Shown: positions 4,508-44,588, numbered from the stretch's first letter. The stretch: DNA of 46,661 bases from Candidatus Nanohalarchaeota archaeon (GCA_003660865.1 QMVA01000001.1:1-46661), one strand, 5' to 3'. Notes: generated from the sequence alone by a model not told the origin. Translations and numbers: made by a program.

Positions 4508-4508
4508 G

Positions 4509-5645: not shown

Positions 5646-5648
5646 AGG

Positions 5649-8600: not shown

Positions 8601-9404
8601 AGGTCAAATATTACAGGTGAGTATACAATCACGACACTTTACCCCGATTCGTATATAGAATATAATTATACGCCATCTGTTGATCTTGATTATGGTGAAA
8701 TATCACTTACGTTTGATAGTCTCACGTTTGGTGAAACATCCGGCAACCCAGGTGTGGAAAGCCCAAAAAACGGCTCATACTGGATTCCGCCATCTGTTGA
8801 AGTCATTGATGCAAAAGCAACATCGTATTCTTCAGAGTTCTGGACAAGCATTCTAAACGTGAGAAACGAAACGTCCGGTTGGGTTAATGTATACAACTTA
8901 AGTACGTATGGAGATGATTTTACAAAGTTCGGTGATCCATATATTGTCTTCATGCCTGTATCGCTCATAGGGCAGAACCAGACCAATTATGTGCAGATAA
9001 ATACTGGCACCAATGAAACATATTTCACTGGCGGGTCGCCTGACAGTAAGGTGATATATACTATAAAAATCAAGGGAATTGCGAGTTACGGTGAGATATC
9101 TCCCAAGGCAGACGGGTGTGAATGGGTAGTGGAGCAATACAACGGCAATAACGCTACAATAAAAATTCCATCGGACTATAACGGGACGAAGACTTGCGAG
9201 TTTTCAAGTGCGCAAATAGTCTATGATCATGATGATTCAATAGACAATGCGGCAATCTTACTGCTGCAGCAACTTGATGTGACGGGCGATAACAGAATAG
9301 ATATTGCGATAGACCAGACTAATATCAATATATGTATAATAAAAGTTACAGATATCCCATGGATGTGGGGACCTGCGATTTTGAAACTTGAAATATGGAA
9401 GTAA
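5649..9404 (+). CDS. Giant pilin-like surface protein with a split von Willebrand factor A (vWA) domain
   Basis: The N-terminus is ..QKKA/IMFTTDALIGMSLLIIAAAII (class III-like). A MIDAS DLSGSMG motif sits at D405 (nt 6861). The conserved vWA Asp motif MLIMSDGGAN (D898) sits near nt 8340. I counted about 30 N-x-S/T sequons by eye. An alternative start is ATG 5658, which has better spacing from the aagga Shine-Dalgarno sequence. Confidence 0.8.
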   Translation: MINMTVQKKAIMFTTDALIGMSLLIIAAAIIFSQDASRMPYRYTFEQANVISEDFVSMLSSIEFSSVNETLRESIISDTNVSSDDYGEDLVYIIGALWAENSTISMSYARQLTQAYIGALIPVGYSYGLFIDDEEIYSDSKGDYGVLSASKRMISGIHEGLPTKGISTRVSISNILSKNTAKFIYFGGFVGEGNITKIFMLPDAVGSVTNVYIEMDAGTNFTMSVNENFAGTYTMSSMVPMYANNWTMPSSYYSLFSPRENTIQINFTDAQNSYIGGGYIKVAYNTSQMDTTMIDLDNGNVSERYGFPGINGFINLYSSFYVPGTLNSMRIYLHIFNPYTTFLYVGNTRVYQNQTNQTQHIYINDTALSSMLNYASMSEATIPIRFGVKNMTGLGFGSDVVEVTDLSGSMGTFDVQPGNQERIAVAKVCDKEFVDTVLANEGQRVGLIAYGTSTDNSRTVYLTDNNVTLKAMIDGYDHDLSWTCISCGVKSATDMLVSTINVTTVVNNGTIWYYNDSYLNTEPPDDSEGRKWYEYNYTLTSEWDTGNGVFGAGSASMPITTLLTTAGSSGNRTYVNLWDDNITTIPVSFETGYNSTANTYGWNMGDDGWDHDLQDNSGPYGYDDNIDYNLVVNGMLEFDTRTGAPARNRCAGYDCSGAYGIQMDITPEAYSILSSSGMAKLSFKYEWDGNDDPFWNSDEVWIKARWTSPTTGIHYLGSELSSAGGDTTPEIDFRDNPNNDIPLTNTVHTMTNRIEGPGTYYLEIGGKLLASWWSGSNKWGYFRFDDILLEIKNGTDTYYFRKNFTIDDVNKVGRGFLKVVSDDMADIYLNGELIDADPGPEHDADYWNRIEFIDRSYFRQGSNVLSAKLYNTIGSTRFDLKLETFNNSRNRAMLIMSDGGANRCFGACPEGAKKQAINFACDAYENYGIISHAVGFGVPPSLDEETLQSIADCGRGMYRSSNNADELKQIYQDIANAMISYTTQRSNITGEYTITTLYPDSYIEYNYTPSVDLDYGEISLTFDSLTFGETSGNPGVESPKNGSYWIPPSVEVIDAKATSYSSEFWTSILNVRNETSGWVNVYNLSTYGDDFTKFGDPYIVFMPVSLIGQNQTNYVQINTGTNETYFTGGSPDSKVIYTIKIKGIASYGEISPKADGCEWVVEQYNGNNATIKIPSDYNGTKTCEFSSAQIVYDHDDSIDNAAILLLQQLDVTGDNRIDIAIDQTNINICIIKVTDIPWMWGPAILKLEIWK

Positions 9405-9408
9405 TTAT

Positions 9409-10515
9409 ATGCCTAAAGGATTTGCTTATACTCTGTTTGTGCTGACAGTAACATTATCGTTAGTTACGATGATAAGCATACATGCATCATCTGAAAATAC
9501 TATTGAAACACCATCGAGAATCAGGAGCAGTCTGTTGTTAACTGTCTTGAATGATATAAATGATGACCTCTCGAGAAGTTCATATATCGCAACTAAAAGA
9601 GCAATCTTAAGTTTAGTTGACTATATGGTAACTAATGGAACATTTATTAATGATACGGAGTCTGCTATATTTTATGCGAGTACAACCGGAGAGTATAATG
9701 GATCAGCACTTTCATTAATGGAAAACACAACAATCAATGACTGGACTGTGTCAATACAGGATATACTGGGTAAAATGGGTGTAGAAGGTACGGTTACTCT
9801 TGAAAGCTACACAATCAGGCAGAGGGACTTATACAATATCGAGCTTGCAACGGTCTATGAGTTGGATATTTATGATCCTATCTCTACAATTCGCATGAAA
9901 AGGAATACAACGCAAAATGTGACGATTGATTATAATTCTTTTGAGGATCCTCTTAACACTGTCAAGAGTAACCTGCTGTTTTCAACGGCATATCTGATGT
10001 GCAACATGTCCGGAGCATACGGCAAGGCGCTGGTGTCGGAAACAAATGCAACGAACTGGACTGTCGGGAGAGTATTTAAGTCAACTGGTCCGGGTGATAT
10101 TGTTTCGTTGTCGAGTAGCGTGAGGGCTGGAAGAATACTTATTACGCACAATATCTCAAGCTATGCACTGTCTGACATAGAGGAGTTTAAAGGCGTGATA
10201 TCTGAAACATCCGACGACCTCGCAGGTGTTACGATACCAAAAATCATAGGGACAGGCGATGCTTGTTCTAATACTGATGGGTCTTATATCGCGGCGATGA
10301 GTACAGAGATAGATAGATGGATAAATAGTATCATGACGTCTCAAGGAACTACATGTTTCATTGAACATGAATTAGGACCTACGTTCTTTGATCGCATGGA
10401 GGGAAATATAACGTATGGCAGATATAGCGGACCTGGAATTGCAACGTTTATAGACCCTACTATCCTGCCGAAAAACCCGCAAAAAGAACTTGATTTTGTA
10501 TACTGGAGCCCGTAG
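9409..10515 (+). CDS. Pilin-like secreted protein (class III signal peptide)
   Basis: The start was set at ATG 9409 (MPKG/FAYTLFVLTVTLSLVTMI): K-G at -2/-1, Phe at +1, then a hydrophobic helix. Many N-x-S/T sequons are present. The track ORF starts at 9388, inside the previous gene. Confidence 0.7.
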   Translation: MPKGFAYTLFVLTVTLSLVTMISIHASSENTIETPSRIRSSLLLTVLNDINDDLSRSSYIATKRAILSLVDYMVTNGTFINDTESAIFYASTTGEYNGSALSLMENTTINDWTVSIQDILGKMGVEGTVTLESYTIRQRDLYNIELATVYELDIYDPISTIRMKRNTTQNVTIDYNSFEDPLNTVKSNLLFSTAYLMCNMSGAYGKALVSETNATNWTVGRVFKSTGPGDIVSLSSSVRAGRILITHNISSYALSDIEEFKGVISETSDDLAGVTIPKIIGTGDACSNTDGSYIAAMSTEIDRWINSIMTSQGTTCFIEHELGPTFFDRMEGNITYGRYSGPGIATFIDPTILPKNPQKELDFVYWSP

Positions 10516-10519
10516 TGGA

Positions 10520-13141
10520 CTATTCAATAATTACTGGCGCGTTTTTGTCCCGATTAAACATCTCAAAGTACAATCCTTTTATCTTTTCGAGTTCCTGTCT
10601 TAAGACTTCACTTTCATTCTGGACAGCGCGCATTTTTCTTTCCAACATGTCGCTTGTCATGCCGTTTCCGGATTGAATCATCTCAATTTTCTCTGTGAGA
10701 TTCTTAAGTTTCTCATCATACATTTTTTTATTATCATTTGAGTTCGCGCCTGATTTTTCTTCTTTTTTTGCGTAGTTTTCCAGTATTGTTTTGACGTCGT
10801 CAGCAAGTTCTGTTTTTGTATCTTTCAGCAAAATTATGTCGCTTTCAATCTGTGAAAGCCGCTCTACAATTGGGTTGACTGTGGTTTTAATTTTTTCATG
10901 AGCACTTTTGCTGACTTCGAGATGTCTCTGTTCAAGTTTCCTGTTCAAAAGTGCGACTGATTTTGCAATCTTATTCTGGTTCGATACATGGGGCATGAGT
11001 TTATTGTCAAAGAGATCCTCTACTTCTGAATAGTTTACTTTCTTTTCGGATTTCTTTATGTTGTTCTTCAATTCGTTAATGTCGCTTAATATTTTTGCCT
11101 TGAACTCAGCAAATTCCTCGTAATTGTGTGATTCACTTTTGCTTTTTCCTGTTTTCTTTGATGTGTCTGAGATATATTTCTTCAGAGGAAGCAACTTTGC
11201 GTTGAATTCATTTCTTAAGGTATACATCAAGACTTTCTGTTTCAGTGTCTCGTTTTTGACTTTTGATTTAATGTCAGTACTTAATGTGTTAATATTCTCA
11301 ACAACATCCGATAGTTCGGCGGTGACAGTTTTGTTGACTGCGCTATCAACATCATGCGTTATCCTATCTTTCACATAATCTTTATTATTTGCAACATGGT
11401 TTTCGATATCAGTAATCCTTTTCTCTGTCCTGTTATGTACCTGATACAACTTAGATACATTTTCTTTCAGTACTGGAATGTACTTTATATAATCTGCGCC
11501 ATTAGAGTTCCGTGAATCCAACTTACGGGATAACTTTTTCTCTACGGATTGCATACTTGCTATCATGTTGTCAATATCGCTGAAGCGGCCCTCAAATTCA
11601 TTGCTTTTGCTCTTCAACTTATTCAGCAGTTTAGTTGTATGGTCGAGTGTATTCAATCTTTTTTTCTGGTCCTCGATACTCTCTGAAAACTGCTCAACTT
11701 CTGCTTTTATTTCGTCGAGCAGTTTGACCTTTTTAGCGAGTTTTGAATTTTTCCTGTTGCATGCGGTAATATCATCTGATAATTTGTCCAGTTCTTCGGA
11801 GGAAGCGCGGGAATGCTCAAGATTTTCAATCTTTTTTTTCATTTCGTTTAGTATTCCTAATTGATTGTTCATTGAGTTCAGTTTCAGTTTATCAGCCGCG
11901 TCCTGTTCGCGAATCCTCCTGAGTTCTGTTTTTGTCTCTTCGAGCAGTTTGACCTTTTCGGCGAGCTTTGAATTTTTCGTGTTGCATGCGGTAATGTCAT
12001 CTGATAATTTGTCCAGTTCTTCGGAGGAAGCGCGGGAATGCTCAAGATTTTCAATCTTCTTTTTCATATCGTTTAGTATTCCTAACTGATTGTTCATTGA
12101 GTTCAGTTTCAGCTTATCGGCCGCGTCCTGTTCACGAATCCTCCTGAGTTCTGTTTTTGTTTTGTCGAGCAGTTTAATCTTTTCTTCGAGTTCGCCTGTA
12201 TTCTTTTTGCATCCTGCGATTTCATTCGTCAACTTGTCGATTTCTTCTTTGTTTGTATCCAGAAGACTACGGGCAATGTCCTGTTTCATGTGCCTTATCT
12301 TTGAATCGAGAACAGTCACAAGTTTTTTATCCATTACCCTGAAGCCATCAACAATTTTCGCCTGCTCGCCAAGTTGCCGAAGTGTTTTTTCGTTGTTCTC
12401 ACTAATCCTTGATTCAAATTCTTTTGCACCTTTTCTTGATGCCTTAACAAGACTTTCTACTTTATCAACTACATCTTTCAGGGTTGCGATTTCTGCCTTA
12501 ACAGCATCAATTTCTGCTTTATCAAGGCTTCCATTTGAACCAGTTCGGGTTGAAAGCATTGATTTGAATTTATTGTCTCTTTTTTCAAGGTCGCTTTTTA
12601 TGGTGGAAACAAATTTCCTGAATTCTGTATCTATATTGTTATATTTGCGCTCAAGGTCAATCATCTTTGAGGCATTGTTTTTTGGACTCTGATTTTCTGC
12701 TATTTTTTTAATTGAATCAAGTTCTGATTTAAGGGATGAGATGCTTTTCTCAAAATTTGTTGTGTCTCTTTTCGCATCCGGGGCTGTAATCTTTGTGCTT
12801 ATCATCTTTATGGCGCCGGAGAGTAATTTCATTTTGCCTTGAAGAGTTTCCATGTCGTCTGTGAGTTTAAGGATTTCGTCCTGGGCCTGTATTGTCTCTA
12901 GTTTTGTGATTAACTCAAGATCTTCCATCTCGCGCAGTTTTTCCTGAATCTGTGCAAGTCTTGCCAGTGACTCTTTTAAATCTTTTATCTCACTTGTTGC
13001 TTTGATGCTCTCTTTCAGTTTGTCCAGAGAGTTTTCTAAGATAATAACCTTTTTTTCAATTTCAATCTCGACACTCTTTTTCTGAATATCTAATGGCATC
13101 TTCTCTGCTACAGATTTTGATGAATTCCTGCTTGTGAACAT
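10520..13141 (-). CDS. 873-aa coiled-coil protein with internal 75-aa tandem repeats
   Basis: The composition is rich in K/E/L heptad-like sequence throughout, with no TM segment and no enzymatic motif. The repeat ...KLNSMNNQLGILN(D/E)MKKKIENLEHSRASSEELDKLSDDITACN... occurs at least twice, nearly identically. Confidence 0.8.
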   Translation of the reverse strand: MFTSRNSSKSVAEKMPLDIQKKSVEIEIEKKVIILENSLDKLKESIKATSEIKDLKESLARLAQIQEKLREMEDLELITKLETIQAQDEILKLTDDMETLQGKMKLLSGAIKMISTKITAPDAKRDTTNFEKSISSLKSELDSIKKIAENQSPKNNASKMIDLERKYNNIDTEFRKFVSTIKSDLEKRDNKFKSMLSTRTGSNGSLDKAEIDAVKAEIATLKDVVDKVESLVKASRKGAKEFESRISENNEKTLRQLGEQAKIVDGFRVMDKKLVTVLDSKIRHMKQDIARSLLDTNKEEIDKLTNEIAGCKKNTGELEEKIKLLDKTKTELRRIREQDAADKLKLNSMNNQLGILNDMKKKIENLEHSRASSEELDKLSDDITACNTKNSKLAEKVKLLEETKTELRRIREQDAADKLKLNSMNNQLGILNEMKKKIENLEHSRASSEELDKLSDDITACNRKNSKLAKKVKLLDEIKAEVEQFSESIEDQKKRLNTLDHTTKLLNKLKSKSNEFEGRFSDIDNMIASMQSVEKKLSRKLDSRNSNGADYIKYIPVLKENVSKLYQVHNRTEKRITDIENHVANNKDYVKDRITHDVDSAVNKTVTAELSDVVENINTLSTDIKSKVKNETLKQKVLMYTLRNEFNAKLLPLKKYISDTSKKTGKSKSESHNYEEFAEFKAKILSDINELKNNIKKSEKKVNYSEVEDLFDNKLMPHVSNQNKIAKSVALLNRKLEQRHLEVSKSAHEKIKTTVNPIVERLSQIESDIILLKDTKTELADDVKTILENYAKKEEKSGANSNDNKKMYDEKLKNLTEKIEMIQSGNGMTSDMLERKMRAVQNESEVLRQELEKIKGLYFEMFNRDKNAPVIIE
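11712..12250. repeat. 225-bp in-frame tandem repeat inside the coiled-coil gene (about 2 near-identical copies plus a diverged third)
   Basis: Plus-strand shadow ORFs restart with identical MFIEFSFSLSAASCSRILLSSVFV at 11865 and 12090 (period 225). Direct comparison of 11715-11945 with 11940-12170 shows only a few mismatches. Confidence 0.9.
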
Positions 13142-13530: not shown

Positions 13531-14856
13531 ATGTCATGGACAAAAATTTCTGGATTTAAAAAGGATATTATACATAAAAAAACGAGCATTGCACTTATAG
13601 GATTAGGGTATGTAGGACTGCCACTTGCCATGACTTTTGCTAAGAAAGGGTTTAATGTGTATGGTTATGATGTTGACAAGGCTAAAATACAATCCTTAAA
13701 ACGCAGGGAAAATTATCTTGAAAGCGAAGTGTGGATGACAAAGGTACTCAGGAAATCGCAGACATTTTGCCCTTCGGTGGATGTTGAAAATTCAGGTATT
13801 CACGACATAATTATTGTTGCAGTTCCCACTCCTGCTGATCCGGTGACTAAACGGCCAGTTTATGACTATATAGAGTCTTCGGCGAGAGCTGTTGGCGCGA
13901 ATCTGAAAAAGGGCAGTCTTGTCATTCTTGAGTCAACAGTAGGGCCTGGCACAACAGAGGGGCTGTTCAGAAAAATTATTGAGTCTGTGTCGGGCTTAAG
14001 GGTCGGGCATGACTTTGGCCTTGGCTATTCACCGGAGCGTGTCAACCCGGGCGATGAAGAGCACAGGATAGAAAACATCCCGAAAGTCGTGAGCGGCATA
14101 GATGATGCGAGTGCTTGTGCTTGTGCCTGTATCTACAGCCAAATCGTTCCTTCAGTCTATAAGACACCGACAATAAAAGAAGCAGAACTCACCAAACTTC
14201 TTGAAAATATCCAGAGAGATGTGAATATTGCTCTTGTAAATGAATTCGCAAAAATCTGCGATATACTCGACGCAGATGTCACAAAAGTTATCGAGGCTGC
14301 CTCTACAAAATGGAACTTTTACAGTGTCTTGCCCGGATGCGGTGTAGGTGGTCATTGCCTTCCTGATGACCCGTGGTTTCTCATGCATGAGCTCGAAAAA
14401 AAGGGATATACTTCGGAGTTGATTAAAACAGCAAGAAAAACAAATGATGAAATGCCTGCATATACGGCGCGCAAGGTGAATCTGCTTCTTGGCGGAAAAC
14501 CAAATGGTGCGAAGATAGCGATACTTGGTCTCGCATACAAAAACGATTCGTCGGATGTGCGGAACACCCCGGCGAAAGCGATTGTTGATGAAATAAAGAA
14601 TATTGGCTATACAAATCTCATAGCTCATGACCCGTATGTCAGTAAAGTAGAGTGGATAGAGACAGATACTTTTGAGAATACAATAAAAGACGCGGAACTT
14701 ATAATTGCCACAACATCTCACAAATGCATAAAGAGCATGTCTGCGACTGACCTGAGAAGGCTCGCGCCCCAGACATCAGTGATTGACGGCAGGAACATGT
14801 TCGACAAGAGTCAATTCCTGAAAATGCATATAAAATATGCAGGGATCGGGCGGTGA
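13531..14856 (+). CDS. UDP-sugar 6-dehydrogenase family (UDP-ManNAc/UDP-glucose dehydrogenase-like)
   Basis: 441 aa with an N-terminal Rossmann motif IALIGLGYVGLPLA, a catalytic-Cys region GVGGHCLPDDP, and a C-terminal UDP-binding domain pattern. Confidence 0.9.
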   Translation: MSWTKISGFKKDIIHKKTSIALIGLGYVGLPLAMTFAKKGFNVYGYDVDKAKIQSLKRRENYLESEVWMTKVLRKSQTFCPSVDVENSGIHDIIIVAVPTPADPVTKRPVYDYIESSARAVGANLKKGSLVILESTVGPGTTEGLFRKIIESVSGLRVGHDFGLGYSPERVNPGDEEHRIENIPKVVSGIDDASACACACIYSQIVPSVYKTPTIKEAELTKLLENIQRDVNIALVNEFAKICDILDADVTKVIEAASTKWNFYSVLPGCGVGGHCLPDDPWFLMHELEKKGYTSELIKTARKTNDEMPAYTARKVNLLLGGKPNGAKIAILGLAYKNDSSDVRNTPAKAIVDEIKNIGYTNLIAHDPYVSKVEWIETDTFENTIKDAELIIATTSHKCIKSMSATDLRRLAPQTSVIDGRNMFDKSQFLKMHIKYAGIGR

Positions 14857-14862
14857 TGAGAT

Positions 14863-16155
14863 ATGGGATTGCCAATATTAGTACCTGTCATCGGATCACA
14901 AATCATTTTCGGGGCTTTTGCAAAACTCAAAAAGAAACCGTATGTTCTGCCTGCTAAGTGTGATTATAAGCCGACTATCTGTGTTGTGATTCCTGCAAAA
15001 AACGAAGGTCTGCGTATTCAGTATGCTTTGGCGTCACTTGAAATGCAGACGTATCCTGTTGAGAAAGTATATGTGATTGACGACGGTTCAGAAGACAATA
15101 CAATTGAAGTAGTGCGAAAAATGAATATTCTGATGAAGGACACTGAGATTGAACTATATGGCCATAAGAGGTCACACGGCAAAACACCGGGCGTAAAGTT
15201 TGCAACAAGAACAGCAACCACAGATAAAATAATGGTACTTGATGCAGATACAATACTTTCAGATCCGCACTACATTGAAAAAATCGTGAGGGCACACTCG
15301 GATCCAAAAACAGGGTGCAGTTATGGTGCAGTTACGCCGTTCTCAAGGAAAGAGCAGCTAAAAACGCTGTTTGAGATGCTTCTAACAAAACATTATCCAG
15401 TCTCAAGAGAACTTATCATGCAATACAAAAACAAAGTGAAAATGCGCCCTGTTGATAAAATAAAATATTATCTACTTCGCTGGCCAGTTGAGAGATATCG
15501 TGAAGCACTGTACCTTACGGACCAGTACTTTTCGAAGGACAGCGCACTACGCGTCTATGGTACGACACTTTTTCCTATAGGATGTGGGGTGCTGTATGAC
15601 AGGAAACTTCTAAAGAGCCAATTCGATATCTATGAGAGTACACTTGGCGACAATCTTACGACGTCAGAAGATATATTCATTGGATTTTCACTTGTGAATG
15701 AAGGCTACAAGAACGTACAAATAGCAGACGCAAAAATGATAAGTGCTGAGCCGCGCGTTGACAGGCTGCCAAGACAGCTTTTCTTATGGACATCTTCATT
15801 TTTCCAAAGTGCCTACTACTTCAGAAATATGACATTTGCCCTGAAACGCAAAAACAACAGACCTGCTGTTGGCTGGGTAATACTTCCGCCTATCTTTGAA
15901 AAAATTACATATCCTCTGGCCCTTGCGTATCTTGTCTGGTTTGATTACTGGTATGCTCTTCTTACACTTATGATAGAGTTCATAGCATATATGGCTATAT
16001 TGCGGATGTCTGACCCAAAAATGTCCAAAATGCACTTTTTTAAAATATGTGTTGTGGCACTTCCGCTTCGTGTTGTCAACCTGTTCCTGGACATATATGT
16101 GACATTTCGCTTTGTAATTGACCTTATAATCGGACGGAGGAATTGGAGAAAATGA
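14863..16155 (+). CDS. Membrane-integrated family 2 glycosyltransferase, processive-synthase type
   Basis: Contains VVIPAKNE...VIDDGSEDNT, DAD, a TED-like TSEDIF motif, and RQLFLW in the position of Q(Q/R)xRW. Hydrophobic helices flank the catalytic domain. Confidence 0.85.
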   Translation: MGLPILVPVIGSQIIFGAFAKLKKKPYVLPAKCDYKPTICVVIPAKNEGLRIQYALASLEMQTYPVEKVYVIDDGSEDNTIEVVRKMNILMKDTEIELYGHKRSHGKTPGVKFATRTATTDKIMVLDADTILSDPHYIEKIVRAHSDPKTGCSYGAVTPFSRKEQLKTLFEMLLTKHYPVSRELIMQYKNKVKMRPVDKIKYYLLRWPVERYREALYLTDQYFSKDSALRVYGTTLFPIGCGVLYDRKLLKSQFDIYESTLGDNLTTSEDIFIGFSLVNEGYKNVQIADAKMISAEPRVDRLPRQLFLWTSSFFQSAYYFRNMTFALKRKNNRPAVGWVILPPIFEKITYPLALAYLVWFDYWYALLTLMIEFIAYMAILRMSDPKMSKMHFFKICVVALPLRVVNLFLDIYVTFRFVIDLIIGRRNWRK

Positions 16156-17144
16156 ACTCAACAATGAAAGAGAAAATACTGGTGACCGGTGGAGCCGGAT
16201 TTATCGGAACCCATGTAGTACAGAAACTGCTGGAGGAAAAGGATGATGTTCACATTGTTATTCTTGACAATTTTTCTGTTGGTAAGGCAGACCGCTTCAT
16301 GCCGTTCTGTACAGGTACAAAGAGGCTTGATATAGTTAAGGGTGATGTGCGGGATGAAAAAATTCTGGATAAAGTACTGTCAGGTACAAATATTGTCTAT
16401 CATCTTGCGGCTGTTGTCGGTGTTGATCGCGTGATATCTATGCCGGAAGAAACATGGGATGTTGAGGTTAATGGTACGAAAATGCTCATTGAAAAATGTA
16501 TTTATCATAAAGTAAAGCGTTTCTTTCTGGCGTCGTCTTCAGAGTGCTATGGCAAGTACTCTTCTCATAGTCTGCCTATGAAAGAAAGTGATTCTATAAT
16601 GCCAAATACAAACTATGGAAAGGCAAAGTACGAGTGTGAAAAGATATGTGAACAATACAATCGTGAAGGCAGGATTAGCTGCGTGGCTGCAAGGTATTTT
16701 AATGTATATGGCAAGTTCCAGAGTTTCAATGGCTATGTGATTCCTAATATGGTGATGCAGGCTCTCAATAATGAGCCGATTAAAATATACGGGCATGGCG
16801 ACCAGCTGCGTGATTTTATGTATATAGATGATACGGTTGATGCTACAATAAAACTTATAGAGAGTGAGCTTACCGGAGTATATAATATTGGTTCCGGTAA
16901 GTGTACGAGTATCAAAAATATTGCTGAAACGATAATAAAACTTACTGGTTCTGATTCGATGATAACGCATGTGCCGATAAGACGTCCTACTGATATAGAG
17001 AGCAAACTAAGTGATAATTCGAAAATCAGAAAATCAACTAACTGGAAGATCGGGCATGATATAAACACAGGACTCAAAGAGACAATCAATAGCTATAGGA
17101 GGTATTTGAATGAATGTAATTGCAATATGCGCACATCCGGATGA
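16152..17144 (+). CDS. NAD-dependent epimerase/dehydratase (extended SDR, UDP-glucuronate decarboxylase-like)
   Basis: Contains GGAGFIG, SSSECYG and YGKAKYECE (YxxxK). The ATG at 16152 overlaps the upstream TGA (ATGA) and lies 11 nt after a GGAGG. The track uses TTG 16143. Confidence 0.9.
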   Translation: MNSTMKEKILVTGGAGFIGTHVVQKLLEEKDDVHIVILDNFSVGKADRFMPFCTGTKRLDIVKGDVRDEKILDKVLSGTNIVYHLAAVVGVDRVISMPEETWDVEVNGTKMLIEKCIYHKVKRFFLASSSECYGKYSSHSLPMKESDSIMPNTNYGKAKYECEKICEQYNREGRISCVAARYFNVYGKFQSFNGYVIPNMVMQALNNEPIKIYGHGDQLRDFMYIDDTVDATIKLIESELTGVYNIGSGKCTSIKNIAETIIKLTGSDSMITHVPIRRPTDIESKLSDNSKIRKSTNWKIGHDINTGLKETINSYRRYLNECNCNMRTSG

Positions 17145-17766
17145 TATAGAAATCAACTGTGCAGGTACCTTGCTAAAGCACGTTGCACAGGGCGATAAGG
17201 TTGTGATGGTATCTGTGTCCGATGGCGGAACAACAAACTATGAGCGTGAAATTGTCAGAAGCAGTGAGACGGCAGTGTCTGAAGCCAAGAAGGCAGCATT
17301 GATTATTGGAGCAAAGCTGTATGTGCTCAATTATAAGGCGCTTGACATACCCTACAACCACGAAATAATTTCGGAGCTTGAATCACTTATTACCAAGCAT
17401 GACATTGATATAGTCTATACACACTGGCATAGTCATACGAATCAGGATCATAGAAGGGTAAGCAGGTCTGTTCTCGCGGCTGCAAGATGTGTCAATAGGG
17501 TGCTCATGTGGGAAGAGGGAATACCGCATTCTTTGTGCTTTTCCGGATTCAATCCCCAGTTGTATGTAGATGTAACAGAACATATGGACAAAAAAATAGA
17601 GGCTATTCGCGCTCATGAATCGCAGGTTGAGAAATATGCTGAGGATATAGTAGATGCGATTACAGCGCGCGCAAGGTACAGGGGATACCAGATGCGTGTG
17701 AGGTATGCTGAGTGTTTTGAGGTAAGTAAGCTTACAAATGAGGGATTTTCTGAAAAAAGATTGTGA
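17110..17766 (+). CDS. PIG-L / LmbE-family N-acetylglucosaminyl deacetylase
   Basis: The N-terminal AHPDDIE motif and a downstream H..H..DH zinc-site-like motif (HWHSHTNQDH) are the hallmarks of the PIG-L/LmbE/BshB/MshB family. Confidence 0.85.
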   Translation: MNVIAICAHPDDIEINCAGTLLKHVAQGDKVVMVSVSDGGTTNYEREIVRSSETAVSEAKKAALIIGAKLYVLNYKALDIPYNHEIISELESLITKHDIDIVYTHWHSHTNQDHRRVSRSVLAAARCVNRVLMWEEGIPHSLCFSGFNPQLYVDVTEHMDKKIEAIRAHESQVEKYAEDIVDAITARARYRGYQMRVRYAECFEVSKLTNEGFSEKRL

Positions 17767-17770
17767 TGCT

Positions 17771-19396
17771 ATGGATATGTGTTCAATGACTTCTGCGTAC
17801 AGGACAGTAGACCAACTGACAGATGCAGTATATGGGTCATATCTAAATGTCAAGAAAAGAGAGGATTCGGATCCTGCGTGGAAGAAAAGAGTGTTTGCAA
17901 ACAGGAAGAAACTTGCGCAGCACATTGAGAAGTTTCATAAGGTTTCAGGTGCACTTACTCCCGCGGTTCAGCAGGGGCTTGATGTCCTGCGCAGAAAAAA
18001 GGACTGTATATTCCTGATGACCGCACACCAGACAAATTTCATGCCGTATTCAGGAGTCATGAGGAAGACCACGCTTATGCATGCTGTAGCAGAGAAACTG
18101 GAAAATATATCTGATATCGATGTGGTTGAATTTTATGGTATAGCCAACCAGGATATTGCGTCGTCATGGCCATGGCTGAAAATGACTCAACTGCCAAGTA
18201 TCTTTCATAAGAATGGTATTTTTGAGTTGTCGTATCCGTTGAAGAAAGAGTATGAGAAGAAAATTCATGCTGCGGTTTCGAAGCCTGCATGGTCAGATAT
18301 CGCGAAATGGAGGCGTGATGCAGAGGAGTGGATGAAACTCAGCATGAACTTAATCGAGAGTTATGGGTATACTATCTCTTCTGAAAACAAAAAAAAACTA
18401 TATTGCAACTACAAAAAGTTTACAAATATTATCAATTGTTCAAATGAATCTGCGCGCAATTTTGCGGAATTCAATGCAATCATGATCTCAAAAATAGTAA
18501 ACAATCACTTCGGCTATGGTACTCTTTTTTCTCTTTTCACAGACTGCCAACAGGTTTTCGATAAAGAGTTCCTGTATTTGCTTGAAAACCACGGGAAATA
18601 TCACACTTATCTTAATAGTGTCAAGGGAACGAGAGATGCGAGAGCAGTTGCTCCTTTCTGGTACCATTGCGAATGTCTTGGCAAAGTCGAACTTGAGATT
18701 GCACGAGGGAAAGATGCACTTGAATTGTCAGGCAGGTGTCCTGCGTGTGGTAAGATGCATGTGTTCCAGCTTAATGAAGGTAAAGTGTCCCGAGACTTTG
18801 CAAAAATCTTAAAGAATATATCTGCAAGGGCGAGGCCAATGACGCTTGTGTTTTTTGAAGGGCTTGGGGTGAACATGTATGTTGGAGGCGCACTTGCAGG
18901 CAAATGCTACCTGAATGATGCAAAATATATTGCAGATAGGATGCATCTGAACTTTCCGCCTATCGCTATATGGCGCCCGAAGGAAAAGTACAAAGGGCTT
19001 GCCCAGTTATCATGTGAACTGTATAAAAAAAGCGCATGTGGTGACCCTAGTCTGGAGGAAACTATCAAGTATGTCGAAGGTGAGATAAATTCAGTGAATA
19101 ATCGGATGGGTGTAATTGATGCACTTATAAGAAATGCGACTTCAGAGCATGAGCGCAACAGGATGATTGCAGAAAAAAACAGTATCCGGAAACGTCATGA
19201 CTTGAGAGCGCTCACAAAGGAGTTGTCTTCCTTAAAAAAGATCAGTGGTGCAGAATCGGTAATTCCATCAATAATGGATTATGCGATAAACATAGGACTT
19301 AAAAGCACATGTGATCAATGGCGTAGTCATTTGATTGACAATGGGAGTTTGACAGAGGATGTAAATCTTGATTCGATATTAGAGACAAAGAGGTAA
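17771..19396 (+). CDS. BshC-like (UPF0747/DUF2317-type) putative amide ligase with inserted zinc ribbon
   Basis: By-eye alignment to B. subtilis BshC as I remember it gives three matches. LMTAHQTNFMPYSGVMRKT..AVAEKL...VEFYGIANQD matches VVGGQQAGLLTGPLYTIHKI..VLAK..IFWVAGEDHD. GGALAGKCYLNDAKYIADRMHLNFPPIAIWRP matches GPGEINYWGELKQAFAVMGFKMPPVMPR. The C-terminal PSIMDYAINIGL matches RIWNIMYYLNRYG. The start was set at ATG 17771, just after the upstream stop. Confidence 0.6.
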   Translation: MDMCSMTSAYRTVDQLTDAVYGSYLNVKKREDSDPAWKKRVFANRKKLAQHIEKFHKVSGALTPAVQQGLDVLRRKKDCIFLMTAHQTNFMPYSGVMRKTTLMHAVAEKLENISDIDVVEFYGIANQDIASSWPWLKMTQLPSIFHKNGIFELSYPLKKEYEKKIHAAVSKPAWSDIAKWRRDAEEWMKLSMNLIESYGYTISSENKKKLYCNYKKFTNIINCSNESARNFAEFNAIMISKIVNNHFGYGTLFSLFTDCQQVFDKEFLYLLENHGKYHTYLNSVKGTRDARAVAPFWYHCECLGKVELEIARGKDALELSGRCPACGKMHVFQLNEGKVSRDFAKILKNISARARPMTLVFFEGLGVNMYVGGALAGKCYLNDAKYIADRMHLNFPPIAIWRPKEKYKGLAQLSCELYKKSACGDPSLEETIKYVEGEINSVNNRMGVIDALIRNATSEHERNRMIAEKNSIRKRHDLRALTKELSSLKKISGAESVIPSIMDYAINIGLKSTCDQWRSHLIDNGSLTEDVNLDSILETKR

Positions 19397-19401
19397 TAGA
19401 T

Positions 19402-20025
19402 ATGACACATAATGAATTTGTGATAGAAAATTATAATAAATGGATTGACAAGAATCCCGGTATAGGTATCATGGGTTATGGCAGTGAGCAGTCGCAGGAT
19501 ATACGTTTCGGGACACTATTCAAAGCAGGCGATATGGCAGGAAAGACAATACTTGATGTCGGGTGCGGGAGAGGTGACTTTGCTGCAAAATTAGTGAGGA
19601 GCGGGGTAAAGTACAAGAGATATCTTGGTATAGATATAGTTCCGCAAATGATTGATATTGCAAAAAAAGCAAATTCTTCTGAGAATGTGGAGTTTAGAGT
19701 ACTTGATATTTTGGCTTGCAGTGAAAAATTGTCTTTTGATTATGTTATCATGTGCGGTCCGCTGAATCTTCGGACCCCGCATACAGAAGAGACTGCAAAA
19801 AAGCTGATAAGGAAGGCGTATGAGATAGCAAAAATTGGTGTTGCTTTCAATATGACGAGTATTTTGGGTGATGAGGATAAGAAGACAGATCATACATACT
19901 ATTTTGACCCGTTTGATGTTTTGCGGTTCTGCGCAGGGATGACGAGGAACCTCTGGTTTGACCATACATATCTTCCGCATGATTTTACGGTTTTTATGTA
20001 TCGTAAAGGGGAGTATGAATTGTGA
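19402..20025 (+). CDS. Class I SAM-dependent methyltransferase
   Basis: Motif I ILDVGCGRGDF is present, with an acidic motif II LGIDI downstream. The protein is 207 aa. Confidence 0.85.
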   Translation: MTHNEFVIENYNKWIDKNPGIGIMGYGSEQSQDIRFGTLFKAGDMAGKTILDVGCGRGDFAAKLVRSGVKYKRYLGIDIVPQMIDIAKKANSSENVEFRVLDILACSEKLSFDYVIMCGPLNLRTPHTEETAKKLIRKAYEIAKIGVAFNMTSILGDEDKKTDHTYYFDPFDVLRFCAGMTRNLWFDHTYLPHDFTVFMYRKGEYEL

Positions 20026-20233: not shown

Positions 20234-20953
20234 ATGAATACCAGATTTCTTGAGGATGCCGGCTTGACAGAAAATGAGTCTAAGGTATATCTTGCGCTTC
20301 TTCGCACTGGTTCGGCTACAGCAGGTGAGATTACAGAGAAAAGCGGGGTACACAGGCGCAATGTTTATGATGCTATCGAGCGCCTGAAGGAGAAGGAACT
20401 TGTGAGCGGGCTTGAGCAAAATAATAAGAAATATTTTCATCCCAGTGATCCTGAAGAGCTTGTGAATATTCTTAAGAAGAGGCAGAGGAATATAGAGACA
20501 ATAATACCGGATCTCAAAAGGCTCTATGAAAGCCCTGAAACGAAAGAGATTGTGCAGTTGTTTCATGGTGATGTTGGCTTAAAAGCGATTATGGAGATGC
20601 AGGTAGAAGATAATCACGATGTTTTTGTTCTTGCGAGTAGGGATTCAATCGCAGAGATGCTCAGGTTCACTTATCCAGAATATGTAAAGGAGAGGGTAGA
20701 GAAAAATATCTGGATACATTTTATCTTCAATTCATTCGAGGGTGGAAAAACAGTGTCGTCTGCTCCTCTATCAAAAGTGAGGTACTTCCCGAAAGAACAT
20801 TCAGTGCCGTCGACTTTCATGGTGTGGGGTAATAAATCTGCTATAATGCTGTTTACAGAGAATAATCCGGTAATAATGCTTTTCAATAATGAAAGAATTG
20901 CAAAGGATGTCATGGATTATTTTAATCTGATATGGGAGATAGCTATCCGATAA
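20234..20953 (+). CDS. TrmB-family transcriptional regulator
   Basis: The N-terminal winged helix-turn-helix LTENESKVYLALLRTGSATAGEITEKSGVHRRNVYDAIERLKEKELV is typical of TrmB. TATA ctatttataa lies about 25 nt upstream, suggesting a leaderless transcript. Confidence 0.85.
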   Translation: MNTRFLEDAGLTENESKVYLALLRTGSATAGEITEKSGVHRRNVYDAIERLKEKELVSGLEQNNKKYFHPSDPEELVNILKKRQRNIETIIPDLKRLYESPETKEIVQLFHGDVGLKAIMEMQVEDNHDVFVLASRDSIAEMLRFTYPEYVKERVEKNIWIHFIFNSFEGGKTVSSAPLSKVRYFPKEHSVPSTFMVWGNKSAIMLFTENNPVIMLFNNERIAKDVMDYFNLIWEIAIR

Positions 20954-22439: not shown

Positions 22440-23474
22440 GTGAAAGATATAACTGAAAACAAAAGCAACATCATCAAAAAAAAAGAGAACAGTAAAGAAT
22501 ATAACTCTCTTATTTCCTCTATAGGCATCCTTTTAGAAGATGCAAGAAAAAAAGTTTACATGCAGGTTAATCAAATCCTTGTCAAGACATATTGGGAAAT
22601 CGGAAAAAATATTGTTGAATTCGAACAGAAAGGAAAAGAAAGAGCAGAATATGGCACTAAGTTATTTGAGACATTAGCAAAGGATTTGAGACAGAAATAC
22701 GGAAAAGGATTTAGTAGAAGTAATGTAATCTATATGAGAGTGTTCTATTTCAAGTATCCAAAAAGTCAGACACTGTCTGACCAATTGACATGGAGTCACT
22801 ATATAGAGCTTCTGATGGTTGGTGATGACCTTGAACGTTCATTTTATGAAAAACAGTACATCAAAGAAAGATGGTCTGTAAGAGAACTTAAATGACAGAA
22901 AAATTCTTTGCTCTTCGAGAGAATTTCTATGAATAAAGATACGGTAAGCGTTTTGGAACTGGCTCAAAAAGGGTACACTATCAAGAAAGCAGAAGATTTG
23001 ATAAAAGACCCCTATGTGTTGGAGTTCTTGGGAATTTCTGAAAATCGAGCATATTCTGAAAAAGAACTGGAGCAAAGCATAATTGACAATTTACAAAATT
23101 TTTTGCTGGAATTAGGAAAAGGTTTCACTTTCGTTGCCAGACAATTTAGAATTAGCCTGGGAAACAGGCATTACTATGTTGATTTAGTATTCTACCATAG
23201 AATCCTGAAATGCTTCGTGTTAATTGATTTGAAAATAGGTGAAGTAACTCATGCTGATGTTGGTCAGATGAACATGTACCTGAATTATTTCAGAAAAGAA
23301 GAGATGACGAAAGAAGATAATGAGCCTGTTGGAATTATACTTGCCAAAGAAAAAGAAACAATTGTTGTGGAGTATGCCTTAGGTGGATTATCTAACAAGT
23401 TGTTTGTATCGAAGTATAAACTATACCTACCAAGCAAAGAAGAGCTGGAAAAAGAAGTAGAAAGACTGATTTAG
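22440..23474 (+). pseudogene. DUF1016 / YhcG-like PD-(D/E)XK nuclease gene interrupted by one in-frame TGA
   Basis: The two track ORFs (22440-22895 and 22908-23474) are in the same frame. Reading through gives ...WSVRELK*QKNSLLFERISMNKD..., which is contiguous with the usual DUF1016 WSVRELerqi.s.LfER motif. The C-terminal half carries the nuclease-core pattern YYVDLVFYH...LIDLKIGE. Confidence 0.7.
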
Positions 23475-26011: not shown

Positions 26012-26803
26012 CTAATATTTTTGAGTAGCTCTTTTCACCGCCTCTTTCATCTCCCGGACAAACTTGCCAATCTCATCAACTATCTTCTTTTTGTCATCCA
26101 GATTCTTCTCAATAATCCTGACAATGGCGCTGCCGACAATTACTCCATCAGCTCCTGCGGTAACAATCTTTTGCGCGTGCGCTGGTTCAGAAACCCCGAA
26201 ACCCACAAGAACCGGAACGTCAGTCTTCTCCGTGACCTTTCGGACAAGGTCCAATGTATCGTGTGAAACTCCCTTTCGCGCGCCGGTAACCCCAAGTATA
26301 GACACAAGATATATGTACCCGGACACGTTTTTCAAAATCAGAGATATTCGCTCATAAGTAGTAGTCTGTGAAATAATGAATACAGTATCAACCCCGTGAT
26401 TCCTTGCAGCATCCAAGAAAGGTCCTGCCTCCTCAATAGGAACATCAGCTACAAGCACATAATCAACACCTGCATTGTGCGCATCAGCATAAAAGTTGTC
26501 AATTCCCCGGCGGTGAACAAGGTTAGAATAAATCAACAGACTAATCGGTATCCTGGAATACTTTCTTATCTCCTGAATCATCCTGAAGGACGAATCAACA
26601 CAGGCGTCATTATCAAGCGCCCTTTTGTCTGCAAGCTGTATGGTGGGGCCGTCAGCGACAGGGTCAGAAAATGCAAACCCCAGCTCAAGCATGTCAGCCC
26701 CTTCATCAATCATCTTCATGATGATCTTTTTGGAAGTGTCATAATCCGGATCCCCGACAACTACAAAAGGAACAAATATCTTCCTTTTACCAAACACATT
26801 CAT
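26012..26803 (-). CDS. trpA: Tryptophan synthase alpha chain
   Basis: 263 aa with [17 protein letters not shown] and GFGVS motifs. Its start overlaps the trpB stop by 4 nt. Confidence 0.95.
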
Positions 26804-27966
26804 TTCATCACCCTCATCACATGTTCCATATCCTTATCCCCTCTTCCCGAGAGATTCACAATAATAATGTCCTCTTTTTTCATCTTCTTTGCAACTTTGA
26901 GAGCATAAGCAACCGCATGTGCAGATTCAAGCGCAGGAATAATTCCCTCTAAAAGAGAAAGTTCCTTAAATGCAGATAACGCTTCCTTATCAGTGATGCC
27001 TACATACTCTACACGCCCTGCATCCTTAAGCGCACTATGCTCGGGACCCACACCGGGATAATCAAGTCCTGCTGAAATCGAATATGCCTCATTGATCTGT
27101 CCGTCTTTATCCTGCAATATATAGGAAAGCGATCCATGCAATATGCCGGGTTCACCCCTGCACAAAGATGCGCCATGTTTATTTGTATCCATCCCAAGTC
27201 CTGCTGCCTCAACACCATAAAGTTTTACGTCATCTGACAGGAACTTAAAAAACATCCCGATTGAATTCGACCCGCCGCCGACGCACGCAACAATAGCATC
27301 TGGCAGTCTGCCTTCAACATCCATAATCTGCTTTTTGGTCTCCTCACCGATGACCCTCTGGAAATCGCGTACAATCATAGGATATGGATGCGGTCCCACA
27401 ACAGACCCAAGTACATAATATGTATCCCGGACATTAGCAATCCAGTCGCGCAGTGCCTCATTTACAGCATCCTTAAGGGTACCTGCACCGGATGCTACCG
27501 GAACCACTTCTGCGCCGCACAATTTCATGCGAAAAACATTCAGCTTCTGGCGCTCAATATCCAGAGTACCCATAAAGATGTAGGTCCTGATGCCAAGCAA
27601 TGCCCCAACAGCCGCAGTTGCAACACCGTGCTGCCCGGCGCCCGTTTCTGCAATCAGGCGCGTCTTGCCCATATACTTTGCCAAAAGCCCCTGGCCAAGA
27701 GTATTGTTTATCTTATGTGCCCCTGTATGGACCAAATCCTCCCGCTTAAGATAAATCCTACAGCCATACTTGCACGATAAATTCCCTGCGAAATAGAGTG
27801 GCGTAGGCCGTCCGGCATAATTTTCAAGAAGTCCATGCAATTCCTTTTTAAAGCCTTTATCATCCTTTAATTTAACATACGCGCGCTCAAGCTCTTCAAG
27901 CGCAGGCATGAGCGTCTCAGGCACAAACATGCCCCCGTATTTTCCGAATCTTGTATCTATCTTCAT
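26800..27966 (-). CDS. trpB: Tryptophan synthase beta chain
   Basis: 388 aa with the PLP-lysine region HTGAHKINN and GGGSN. Confidence 0.97.
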
Positions 27967-28592
27967 AAGTAATCCCTCTTTGTAATCTCTATAAACTTCT
28001 TCATCTTATCATGGTCTTTCCTACCGGGCGCTGACTCAATACCACTGGAACAATCCACTGCATACGGCCTGACTGTCTCAATAGCAGATCTGGCATTGTC
28101 GATGTTCATCCCGCCTGAAAGCACAATGGGCTTTTCAAAAGAAAATCCGCTAAGCACACTCCAGTCAAAGACATCCCCTGTCCCACCGGCAATATCTTTC
28201 TTATAAGTATCAAAAAGAATCGCATTAATATAAGGCTCATATCGCTTAACCTGCAATAGGCTGGACTTGTCCTTTATTCTGAATGCTTTGATGACATTAC
28301 AGAACTGCGCACAGTACTCACCTGACTCATTGCCGTGAAACTGCAGGGCAGTCAGCCCGCAATAAGAGTGGATCTCGCGCACGACATCTTCCTTTTCATC
28401 CACAAACACCCCGACTTTCGCAACAAAAGGCGGAAGATATCTTATAATTTCCTTTGCTGTATCCTTATGTATACAGCGCGGACTTTTTTTATAGAATATG
28501 AAGCCGAGTGCATCAGCCCCAAGCTCAATTGCCTTTATCGCATCTTCTAGATTCGTTATCCCGCAAATCTTAATTCTTATCATAAAAATCAC
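27963..28592 (-). CDS. trpF: Phosphoribosylanthranilate isomerase
   Basis: IKICGIT and LQFHGNE motifs are present, about 205 aa. An alternative start is ATG 28583. Confidence 0.9.
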
Positions 28593-35565: not shown

Positions 35566-35718
35566 AACAACACCTCCTTGTGATATATCTAAGAATAAGA
35601 ATAAGAACAGCGTAATATAAACCTTGTCAATACATACCTTGCCGATAGAGTCCAAATTTCGTGATAATCCGACATATTTAAAAATAATTGACCATCAATA
35701 TAATTGGACGTGATTCTA

Positions 35719-36453: not shown

Positions 36454-36464
36454 TAATATTTGGA

Positions 36465-37226: not shown

Positions 37227-37278
37227 AACAATTATTGCTACTTTAAAATATTTAAATGTGTTAATCGAATTGAGATGT

Positions 37279-44584: not shown

Positions 44585-44588
44585 GATA

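Follow-up and report, generated by a model that had tools for sequence, protein, structure and literature searches.

The stretch of DNA analyzed here, 46,661 nt from a metagenome-assembled genome (MAG) labeled Candidatus Nanohalarchaeota archaeon (GCA_003660865.1, QMVA01000001.1:1-46661; hereafter, the window), carries on its + strand a cluster of six genes (13531-20025) that, with a probability of roughly 0.55, encodes an aminosugar re-acylation pathway, in which an N-acetylhexosamine (HexNAc) glycoside would be deacetylated, a new group would be ligated to it through an amide bond, and the product would be methylated. The genes at the center of this reading encode a PIG-L/LmbE-type N-deacetylase, a protein that we call X, which has the fold of the bacillithiol enzyme BshC, and an S-adenosylmethionine (SAM)-dependent methyltransferase. 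A preliminary description of the window had placed X, with its 541 amino acids (aa), 4 nt after the deacetylase gene and the methyltransferase gene 5 nt after X, and we observe that these coordinates are exact, with the PIG-L stop codon TGA ending at 17766, followed by TGCT and by the ATG of X at 17771, and with X ending at 19396 and the methyltransferase gene beginning at 19402. An alternative ATG upstream, at 17738, would extend X to a 552-aa product. The three genes and the relevant segments of X are as follows.

17110-17766, + strand: PIG-L/LmbE (carbohydrate esterase family 14, CE14) zinc-dependent N-deacetylase, 218 aa (PF02585, AHPDD motif)
17771-19396, + strand: X, BshC-like putative amide ligase with a class I aminoacyl-tRNA synthetase (aaRS) fold, 541 aa (fold and model matches of its relatives)
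18026-18037, + strand: HQTN motif of X (H86 Q87 T88 N89), at the site of GQQAG in BshC (family alignment)
18668-18748, + strand: candidate Cys4 ribbon of X (C300, C302 ... C323, C326; PFWYHCxC...GxCxxC; family alignment)
18998-19258, + strand: C-terminal long-helix (coiled-coil-like) region of X, residues about 410-496 (AlphaFold helices H410-423, H428-454, H459-476, and H478-496)
19402-20025, + strand: class I SAM-dependent small-molecule methyltransferase, 207 aa (several class I SAM methyltransferase models of Pfam at about 1e-14)

Relationship of X to BshC

A homolog search over 5.8 billion proteins returned 31 homologs of X. The nearer of them, at 57-76% identity, are without Pfam annotation; those that share 33-36% identity with X align to 92-99% of its length (E = 1e-78 to 1e-96) and match PF10079, the Pfam model of BshC. 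An alignment of 26 X-family sequences (A1), which were each scanned singly against the models and which also served for the profile and for AlphaFold2, contains 13 sequences that match PF10079 (best E = 6.5e-11) and 12 that match the BshC model TIGR03998 (best E = 1.3e-8). Searched against PDB sequences, X itself retrieved only noise with phmmer (CasD, E of about 1), and the A1 profile retrieved Bacillus subtilis BshC (4WBD) as its top match over the N-terminal 110 residues (E = 0.019). With residues 28-541 of 4WBD, rebuilt from frameshifted Bacillus loci and the PDB alignment, as the comparison sequence, hhalign places the X family and BshC in a single register over 302 columns (E = 0.0011), in which AHQ(T/P)N falls on GGQQAG of BshC, ISARARP on VVTRP, YVGGxxGKxYL on IAGPGEINYW, and FPPIA on MPPVM. 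Three BshC-like blocks had earlier been recognized by eye; the first two reappear in this register (with HQ for QQ, and as GG..G..Y...PP), and, of the third, the coiled coil is found in the AlphaFold model only.

The AlphaFold2 model of X, built with A1, has a mean predicted local distance difference test score (pLDDT) of 90.7 and a predicted template modeling score (pTM) of 0.88. Foldseek comparison of this model with the PDB, the structural check proposed in the preliminary description, gives 4WBD as the top match over the full length (E = 8.5e-14, probability 1.00, TM score of 0.58 in both directions, 583 columns, 12% identity), followed by the class I lysyl-tRNA synthetase (LysRS) 1IRX (E = 3e-6) and, at E > 0.007, by MetRS, CysRS, and MshC. 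LysRS as the second-best predicted fold match would be consistent with adenylate-forming chemistry of X. No resemblance in sequence was detected when the family profile of X was compared with the class I LysRS encoded in the window, and no aaRS or anticodon-binding-type domain was detected in X by Pfam. The C-terminal helical region is deleted in one clade of the family (P0027-P0031); BshC has an alpha-helical coiled-coil dimerization domain (PMC4360819). The homology of X to BshC rests mainly on the fold match of the model and on transitive model matches. Fold and transitive sequence evidence place X within the BshC superfamily, though not as an equivalog of BshC: the curated models do not recognize it, its signature motif is altered, it has an extra Cys4 ribbon, and a BshA partner is missing.

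Two Bacillus-group assemblies (L087, 3001-4548; L088, 3001-4682) have bshC broken into at least three frames, probably through sequencing or assembly frameshifts, and broken frames of this kind give rise to many short "BshC" fragments in the protein database.

Motifs and distribution of the X clade

When 1.84 billion representative proteins were searched exhaustively with HMMER, 526 clusters matched at E <= 1e-3, and 205 of them at E <= 1e-30; motif conservation was counted over 144 listed representatives, each at least 450 aa long. Of these 144, 142 have H86, 141 have Q87, and 136 have N89, so that HQxN characterizes the clade, with the second Q alone being common to HQxN and to GQQAG of BshC. 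K99 is, like these three residues, near-invariant, R353 is mostly conserved, and all five would cluster in the Rossmann core, as expected of a catalytic site. The four cysteines (C300, C302, C323, and C326) are each kept in 143-144 of the 144 representatives and lie on beta-hairpins in the model (predicted strands E293-E335); the BshC segment aligned to them (ANLFYEYEDERFLIEK...) is cysteine-free. Judging from the sequences, the four residues probably form a structural Cys4 zinc ribbon, and the insert that carries the cysteines is reminiscent of zinc knuckles found in the connective-peptide domains of certain class I aaRS.

The conserved core also bears on whether X is an amide ligase at all, as a protein of BshC fold could instead act, for example, as a tRNA-dependent aminoacyl transferase or a nucleotidyltransferase, or serve as a carrier or scaffold, with the PIG-L adjacency reflecting a shared pathway but different chemistry. 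The near-invariant H86, Q87, N89, and K99 and the mostly conserved R353 in the Rossmann core argue against such a role, as does the lack of an anticodon-binding-type domain detectable by Pfam, even though X is without HIGH, the BshC signature motif is changed, and the second-best fold match is a tRNA synthetase. In a 2015 review, the ligase activity of BshC itself was still unproven in vitro, and the open active site of the enzyme was taken as a hint that a partner or cofactor was absent; genetically, however, bshC mutants are without bacillithiol, and bshC complementation restores its production (PMC4360819). We therefore consider a nonligase role of X improbable.

A scan of 185,579 species-representative genomes recovered 170 relatives of X, and taxonomy was taken from the best 80 of these 170. 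Archaeal MAGs account for 79 of the best 80 by label, comprising Bathyarchaeia, Methanomethylicus, peat Methanomicrobia/Halobacteriota/Methanobacteriota, Nitrososphaerales, and one Asgard MAG (Borrarchaeum), with the window's own clade labeled "Nanohalarchaeota," Methanosarcinales, or plain "archaeon." The sole non-archaeal label, "Candidatus Acidiferrales bacterium" (L023), is probably that of a mis-binned archaeal contig, the flanking genes of which group with those of Euryarchaeota loci L026 and L027. Taken by its sequences, X is a distinct, almost wholly archaeal clade. The earlier statement that BshC-like proteins are undescribed in archaea needs softening, as 39 InterPro BshC matches in archaea, mostly Asgard, had been noted by 2020, at which time bacillithiol (BSH) was undetected in archaea (PMC7278568). 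A 2025 study based on BLAST found zero archaea with the full BSH pathway. In the searchable literature, we found no account of the Cys4/HQxN clade, of its near-universal PIG-L linkage across Bathyarchaeia, Nitrososphaerales, methanogen-related lineages, and Asgard archaea, or of the methyltransferase fusion described below.

The deacetylase and its coupling to X

The deacetylase open reading frame (ORF) opens with MNVIAICAHPDDIEINCAG and has the N-terminal sequence MNVIAICAHPDDIE. Its assignment to the LmbE family is borne out by PF02585, which it matches at 74.3 bits (cutoff, 28.2; E = 1.7e-20) over profile positions 2-128 of 129. The best NCBIfam model is BshB1 (85.7 bits, E = 3.6e-24), with a score under the equivalog cutoff of 182.5, and the protein is likewise under the BshB2 and MshB equivalog cutoffs. 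The nearest solved structures are an archaeal (Thermococcales) diacetylchitobiose deacetylase (E = 3e-19) and BcZBP of Bacillus cereus (2IXD; E = 2.5e-13). AHPDD occupies residues 8-12, and "QDHR" aligns with "PDHR" of the solved diacetylchitobiose deacetylase; the enzyme retains the metal-binding and catalytic motifs.

The similarity to the Thermococcales enzymes, together with a TrmB-type sugar regulator downstream of the cluster, could be taken to mean that the pair is catabolic, with the PIG-L protein acting as a diacetylchitobiose-type deacetylase in the use of chitin or N-acetylglucosamine (GlcNAc) and X acting in salvage. We rejected this reading, which is highly improbable, on gene context: the operon and its relatives carry biosynthetic genes (UDP-sugar dehydrogenase, glycosyltransferases, epimerase, nucleoside triphosphate [NTP]-transferase, and aminotransferase), and glucosaminidase, sugar kinase, and ABC sugar transporter genes are not recurrent near X.

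Neighborhoods were surveyed over 6- to 10-kb flanks. Of 82 loci in all, 51 have a PIG-L gene at most 5 kb from X, and among the 40 loci in which X has 3 kb or more of sequence on each side, the number is 31; these counts, obtained by BLAST with the window PIG-L, are lower bounds. PIG-L genes are normally few per genome, and we put chance proximity at roughly 1% (an estimate of ours, uncomputed). The six-gene order of the window is kept in relatives at 60-76% identity. In the window clade, Bathyarchaeia, Methanomethylicus, and one clade of Nitrososphaera, PIG-L directly precedes X on the same strand, and in Methanomicrobia and locus L014 it directly follows X, again on the same strand. Several clades of Nitrososphaeraceae have it on the opposite strand, about 1.1 kb downstream, and the Asgard MAG has it about 2.9 kb upstream. 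The gene order has been repeatedly reshuffled, yet PIG-L stays near X, indicating functional coupling of the pair, which is conserved as neighbors across several archaeal phyla.

The recurrent neighbors of X are sugar-nucleotide or polysaccharide genes. They include short-chain dehydrogenase/reductase (SDR) epimerases, UDP-sugar dehydrogenase, MocA oxidoreductase, DegT aminotransferase, a GlmU-like nucleotidyltransferase, and hexapeptide acyltransferases, as well as ATP-grasp ligases with a PHP phosphoesterase, radical SAM proteins, GHL13, and DUF2334. We found among them no gene for thiol redox (bacilliredoxin, YpdA-type reductase, or S-transferase). The glycosyltransferase partner varies by clade. 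In the window it is a 430-aa family-2 glycosyltransferase (GT2) with transmembrane (TM) segments, in Bathyarchaeia a GT2 of 230 aa that is soluble and free of TM segments, and in L089 a 451-aa TM GT2 with canonical QxxRW (in the order PIG-L, X, GT2); elsewhere, PelF-like or ordinary family-4 glycosyltransferases (GT4s) take its place.

In two Nitrososphaeraceae loci (L065 and L072), X is flanked by two ATP-grasp genes (ATPgrasp_Ter/PylC-like) and a PHP-domain gene, together with an opposite-strand PIG-L, an arrangement of PIG-L that is also found in L060-L061, L071, L074, and L078-L079. This setting hints at a product with more than one ligated acid.

The methyltransferase

A separate methyltransferase gene directly follows X in the window's clade only, throughout which the deacetylase-ligase-methyltransferase triad recurs. 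Elsewhere, the triad takes the form of an X::methyltransferase fusion flanked by PIG-L and GT2. In a representative of another lineage (P0030; 718 aa), X is fused to a C-terminal methyltransferase domain that is 35% identical to the window methyltransferase (E = 5e-30), and in L091 the fusion stands between PIG-L and GT2. Such a fusion, in this setting, constitutes Rosetta-stone evidence that GT2, PIG-L, X, and the methyltransferase are one module.

The AlphaFold model of the methyltransferase (pLDDT, 93.1) has XrdM, ToxA, ChlM, DhpI, and CypM as its top Foldseek matches. NmbA, the N-methyl-bacillithiol synthase (9RI2), is not among its PDB sequence matches or its top 50 Foldseek matches, the presence of 9RI2 in these libraries being unconfirmed. 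The methyltransferase family (about 209 aa) is broader than the X family and is also found in bacterial glycan clusters, and homologs at 33-42% identity directly follow other candidate ligation genes in sugar clusters: UDP-sugar dehydrogenase/PIG-L/WbqC (PF08889)/methyltransferase/MocA in L092 (3661-5630), a GT4 cluster with PIG-L and WbqC/methyltransferase in L094 (1996-5630), and NeuB/CMP-transferase/DegT/ATP-grasp/methyltransferase in L093 (3803-5633). WbqC may be a functional stand-in for X. We also considered WbqC as a miniature relative of X and rejected this, with only 26 nonsignificant columns aligning over a GG-K-Y motif (E = 0.11) and no PDB relative. Literature searches on WbqC, on the threonine-attaching enzyme of Methanococcus, and on thaumarchaeal mycothiol genes returned nothing usable.

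The remaining cluster genes

The six genes are separated by gaps of at most 6 nt or overlap by up to 35 nt, and an AT-rich, TATA-like stretch is found upstream of 13531. The remaining cluster genes and the regulator gene 209 nt downstream of the cluster are as follows.

13531-14856, + strand: UDP-sugar 6-dehydrogenase (UDP-GlcNAc/UDP-N-acetylmannosamine [ManNAc] dehydrogenase type), first gene of the cluster
14863-16155, + strand: membrane-embedded GT2, 430 aa (PF00535, E = 4.8e-21; PF13641, E = 2.1e-15)
16143-17144, + strand: SDR-type NAD-dependent sugar epimerase/dehydratase (PF01370, E = 5.2e-56; PF16363, E = 4.8e-57)
20234-20953, + strand: TrmB-family (sugar-sensing type) transcription regulator (PF01978, E = 4.3e-18)

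The dehydrogenase has all three Pfam UDPG_MGDP_dh domains, matches TIGR03026 (E = 5.5e-115), shows weaker similarity to the archaeal UDP-ManNAc dehydrogenase and TviB models, and is syntenic in related loci L001, L002, L007, L008, and L010-L012. The glycosyltransferase, which begins 6 nt past the end of the dehydrogenase gene, is indeed a GT2 and not a GT4 of the BshA type; it has partial matches to PgaC/IcaA, NodC, and HpnI and a degenerate QxxRW motif (RQLFLW). A simple hydropathy scan gives it four hydrophobic segments (residues 1-19, 362-380, 393-411, and 405-423), and the same scan finds no TM segment in the deacetylase, X, or the methyltransferase. The SDR gene overlaps both its neighbors and has sub-cutoff matches to dTDP-glucose dehydratase, GalE, and TviC. 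Whether the TrmB regulator is a member of the module is uncertain; it is absent beside X in the related loci L001 and L002.

Directly upstream of the cluster, 4482-13141 holds four large Pfam-less ORFs (387, 1,251, and 375 aa on the + strand and 873 aa on the - strand). L002 has three large genes similarly placed upstream of its cluster, with a weak VWA match on the largest as the only domain signal.

The UDP-HexNAc 6-dehydrogenase at the head of the operon, a gene also found close to X in L014, L018, L077, and certain loci of Nitrososphaerales, raises the question of which position of the sugar X would act upon. Amino-acid-amidated uronic acids are known from archaeal glycans, and X might amidate the C6 carboxylate of the cluster's hexuronic acid with an amino acid or amine (cf. 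ManNAcA6Thr of Methanococcus N-glycans), with PIG-L acting separately on the 2-acetamido group. The MocA and DegT neighbors point to the diamino-uronic-acid chemistry typical of such glycans. Most loci, however, are without the dehydrogenase, among them the cores in Bathyarchaeia and L089, whereas PIG-L is the consistent partner, and BshC, the sole experimentally anchored relative of X, uses an amine acceptor. Amidation of the uronate is accordingly quite improbable.

Proposed pathway

In known thiol pathways, BshB/BshC and MshB/MshC each use an LmbE deacetylase to free the amine of a GlcNAc glycoside, to which a class-I-aaRS-like ligase adds cysteine, and many bacteria, Chlorobi included, have NmbA for a further step, the N-methylation of this cysteine in bacillithiol (PMC7278568, PMC4360819, PMC12719100). 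Family and fold assignments, the PIG-L/X pairing, the X::methyltransferase fusion, and the cytoplasmic versus membrane predictions are what we observe for the archaeal cluster; by analogy, we infer from them every chemical step, the step order, ATP dependence, substrate identities, and product location. The dehydrogenase and the SDR enzyme would tailor UDP-HexNAc, possibly to a HexNAc-uronic acid, and the membrane GT2 would move the tailored sugar to an acceptor at the cytoplasmic membrane face, which may be either a growing polymer or a lipid or polyprenyl phosphate. Removal of the N-acetyl group by PIG-L, which is soluble, would leave a free amine, to which X, with its class I aaRS-type Rossmann core, would join an activated carboxylate, most likely an amino acid, in an amide bond. 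The methyltransferase may then methylate the newly added group, as NmbA does with the bacillithiol cysteine.

For the window clade, we favor a membrane- or surface-associated glycoconjugate as the product rather than a soluble bacillithiol-type thiol, because the GT2 is an integral-membrane protein, because the dehydrogenase and epimerase suggest a HexNAc-uronic acid, and because of the exopolysaccharide-type neighbors in sister locus L014 and the habit of the methyltransferase family of occurring in glycan clusters. A soluble thiol is possible, especially for the minimal core of Bathyarchaeia.

It is unlikely that the module as a whole makes an archaeal thiol of the bacillithiol or mycothiol type, with a GlcNAc glycoside of a small acceptor being deacetylated by PIG-L, charged with cysteine by X, and N-methylated by the methyltransferase. 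The window GT2 is membrane integral and is accompanied by a UDP-sugar dehydrogenase and an epimerase/dehydratase, neither of which is needed in known thiol pathways, and zero thiol-redox partners recur near X. By their sequence context, the four cysteines resemble a closed structural site and not the substrate-thiolate-binding zinc of CysRS and MshC, and NmbA lies outside the top 50 structural matches of the methyltransferase. On the other hand, BshC is the only strong structural relative of X, BshB1 is the best NCBIfam model of the deacetylase, and the deacetylase, ligase, and methyltransferase mirror BshB, BshC, and NmbA (PMC12719100); the core of Bathyarchaeia, being just the soluble GT2, PIG-L, and X, is compatible with a small-molecule acceptor. 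The specific proposal that PIG-L and X, with a glycosyltransferase and sometimes the methyltransferase, make a novel cysteinyl-aminosugar thiol, an archaeal counterpart of (N-methyl-)bacillithiol, we regard as decidedly doubtful. If true, this would be the main low-molecular-weight redox buffer in Bathyarchaeia, soil ammonia-oxidizing Nitrososphaerales, peat methanogens, and some Asgard archaea. With its His at the position equivalent to HIGH and its Cys4 zinc ribbon, X could also be a tractable homolog that reveals how BshC-type enzymes ligate cysteine.

Several results weigh against the aminosugar re-acylation pathway. X has no real match in Pfam (E <= 10) or NCBIfam (E <= 0.01), where permissive searches returned only noise (CCDC-167, DUF5517, and SLX1_C), so that the PF10079 match anticipated earlier is found in its relatives and not in X itself, and the hhalign probability against BshC is low (19.9%), probably because the BshC profile had only two sequences. 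At the motif site X has HQTN and not HIGH, and KMSKS was not noticed in X either (no search aimed at it was made); with these canonical class I aaRS motifs missing, ATP use is not assured. A 2015 review named BshC as the one enzyme of bacillithiol synthesis still to be reconstituted in vitro (PMC4360819), and for this reason the pathway analogy rests on Bacillus genetics. The structural matches of the methyltransferase mix N- and O-methyltransferases acting on small molecules and leave its N versus O specificity unassignable. A processive, exporting synthase does not go easily with a deacetylase and a ligase that are cytoplasmic, and the acceptor cannot be inferred because the partner glycosyltransferases are non-orthologous between clades. 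Furthermore, several genomes (Bathyarchaeia and peat Methanomicrobia-type MAGs) carry a second X paralog without PIG-L nearby (L021, L041, L042, L047, L050, and L070, in the same MAGs as L016, L030, L029, L040, L032, and L035, respectively), and the PIG-L-less copy in L021 adjoins GT4 and GNAT genes.

The PIG-L-linked X clade marks a widespread, uncharacterized archaeal pathway in the environmentally dominant Bathyarchaeia, Nitrososphaerales, and peat methanogens. Its product would be either a new class of surface or lipid-linked glycans bearing N-aminoacyl and possibly N-methyl groups or the first archaeal thiol akin to bacillithiol. In both cases a gap in the biochemistry of the archaeal cell envelope or of archaeal redox would be closed, and thousands of "hypothetical protein" genes would gain an annotation. 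The aaRS-like features that the clade retains (His at the HIGH-equivalent position and the Cys4 ribbon) offer new material for the problem of the BshC mechanism.

Other features of the contig

The part of the window at 21009-46274 holds a complete-looking trp operon (26012-32554, - strand), pyrC, aspartate kinase, class I LysRS, two PcrB/geranylgeranylglyceryl phosphate (GGGP)-synthase paralogs, a UbiA prenyltransferase, and a geranylgeranyl-reductase-like flavoprotein, with the metabolic genes other than trp located at 35704-38100, 41359-42375, and 43289-46274. Such gene content is atypical of DPANN archaea, and for this reason the "Candidatus Nanohalarchaeota" label of the MAG is probably wrong, while the contig is certainly archaeal. 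The two PcrB-family (GGGP synthase-like) genes (35704-36453, + strand; 36465-37226, - strand) are convergent and 12 nt apart, and the second overlaps the predicted start of the UbiA prenyltransferase ORF (37069-38100). DUF1016_N (22440-22895) and the YhcG PDDEXK nuclease domain (22908-23474), which are normally parts of one protein, are found in two neighboring ORFs of one strand with 12 nt between them, pointing to a gene that is split or frameshifted.

Comparison with known systems

The closest known counterpart of the PIG-L/X pair is BshB/BshC, with B. subtilis YllA/BshC (4WBD) as the structural reference. Both systems pair an LmbE/PIG-L deacetylase with a protein of about 540 aa that has a Rossmann core, connecting-peptide inserts, and a C-terminal coiled coil, and the aligned motifs have in common a Q of QQ, R-P, G-x-G...Y, and PP. 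They differ in that X is only 12% identical to BshC, has HQxN for GQQAG and a Cys4 ribbon for a cysteine-free hairpin, and adjoins its deacetylase gene, whereas bshC is unlinked to the deacetylase gene in Bacillus (PMC4360819). In the bacillithiol pathway, BshA is a GT4 with malate as acceptor, and BshC attaches L-cysteine to glucosamine-malate to yield bacillithiol. X has GT2s or non-BshA GT4s as partners in a context of sugar-nucleotide tailoring, and the window cluster has no BshA-like GT4. MshB/MshC of mycothiol synthesis (MshC, 3C8Z) follow the same logic, with an LmbE deacetylase and then ATP-dependent ligation to the glucosamine amine by an enzyme of class I aaRS fold; MshC, however, is a CysRS paralog from a different branch of the fold, with marginal Foldseek matches to X (E = 0.073-0.23 versus 3C8Z and 8HFM) and no sequence match. 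To the class I aaRS themselves (LysRS 1IRX, MetRS, and CysRS), X is similar in its Rossmann catalytic core at the fold level only, having HQTN and not HIGH, no detectable sequence similarity, and no detected anticodon-binding domain.

NmbA, which acts after the ligase step, is, like the window methyltransferase, a class I SAM methyltransferase; the gene of the window enzyme adjoins X, and its homolog in P0030 is fused to X, with no evidence of orthology between the window enzyme and NmbA. The PIG-L/WbqC/methyltransferase triads (L092 and L094) share with the window the methyltransferase family (41-42% identity), PIG-L, and the UDP-sugar dehydrogenase and MocA context, but have in WbqC a protein of about 215 aa without significant similarity to X. 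Finally, PIG-L/GlcNAc-phosphatidylinositol de-N-acetylase and other CE14 enzymes have in common with the window deacetylase a PF02585 match above threshold and the AHPDD and His motifs, and, by analogy with PIG-L of the glycosylphosphatidylinositol pathway, the window deacetylase may likewise work from the cytoplasm on a GlcNAc glycoside that is bound to the membrane.

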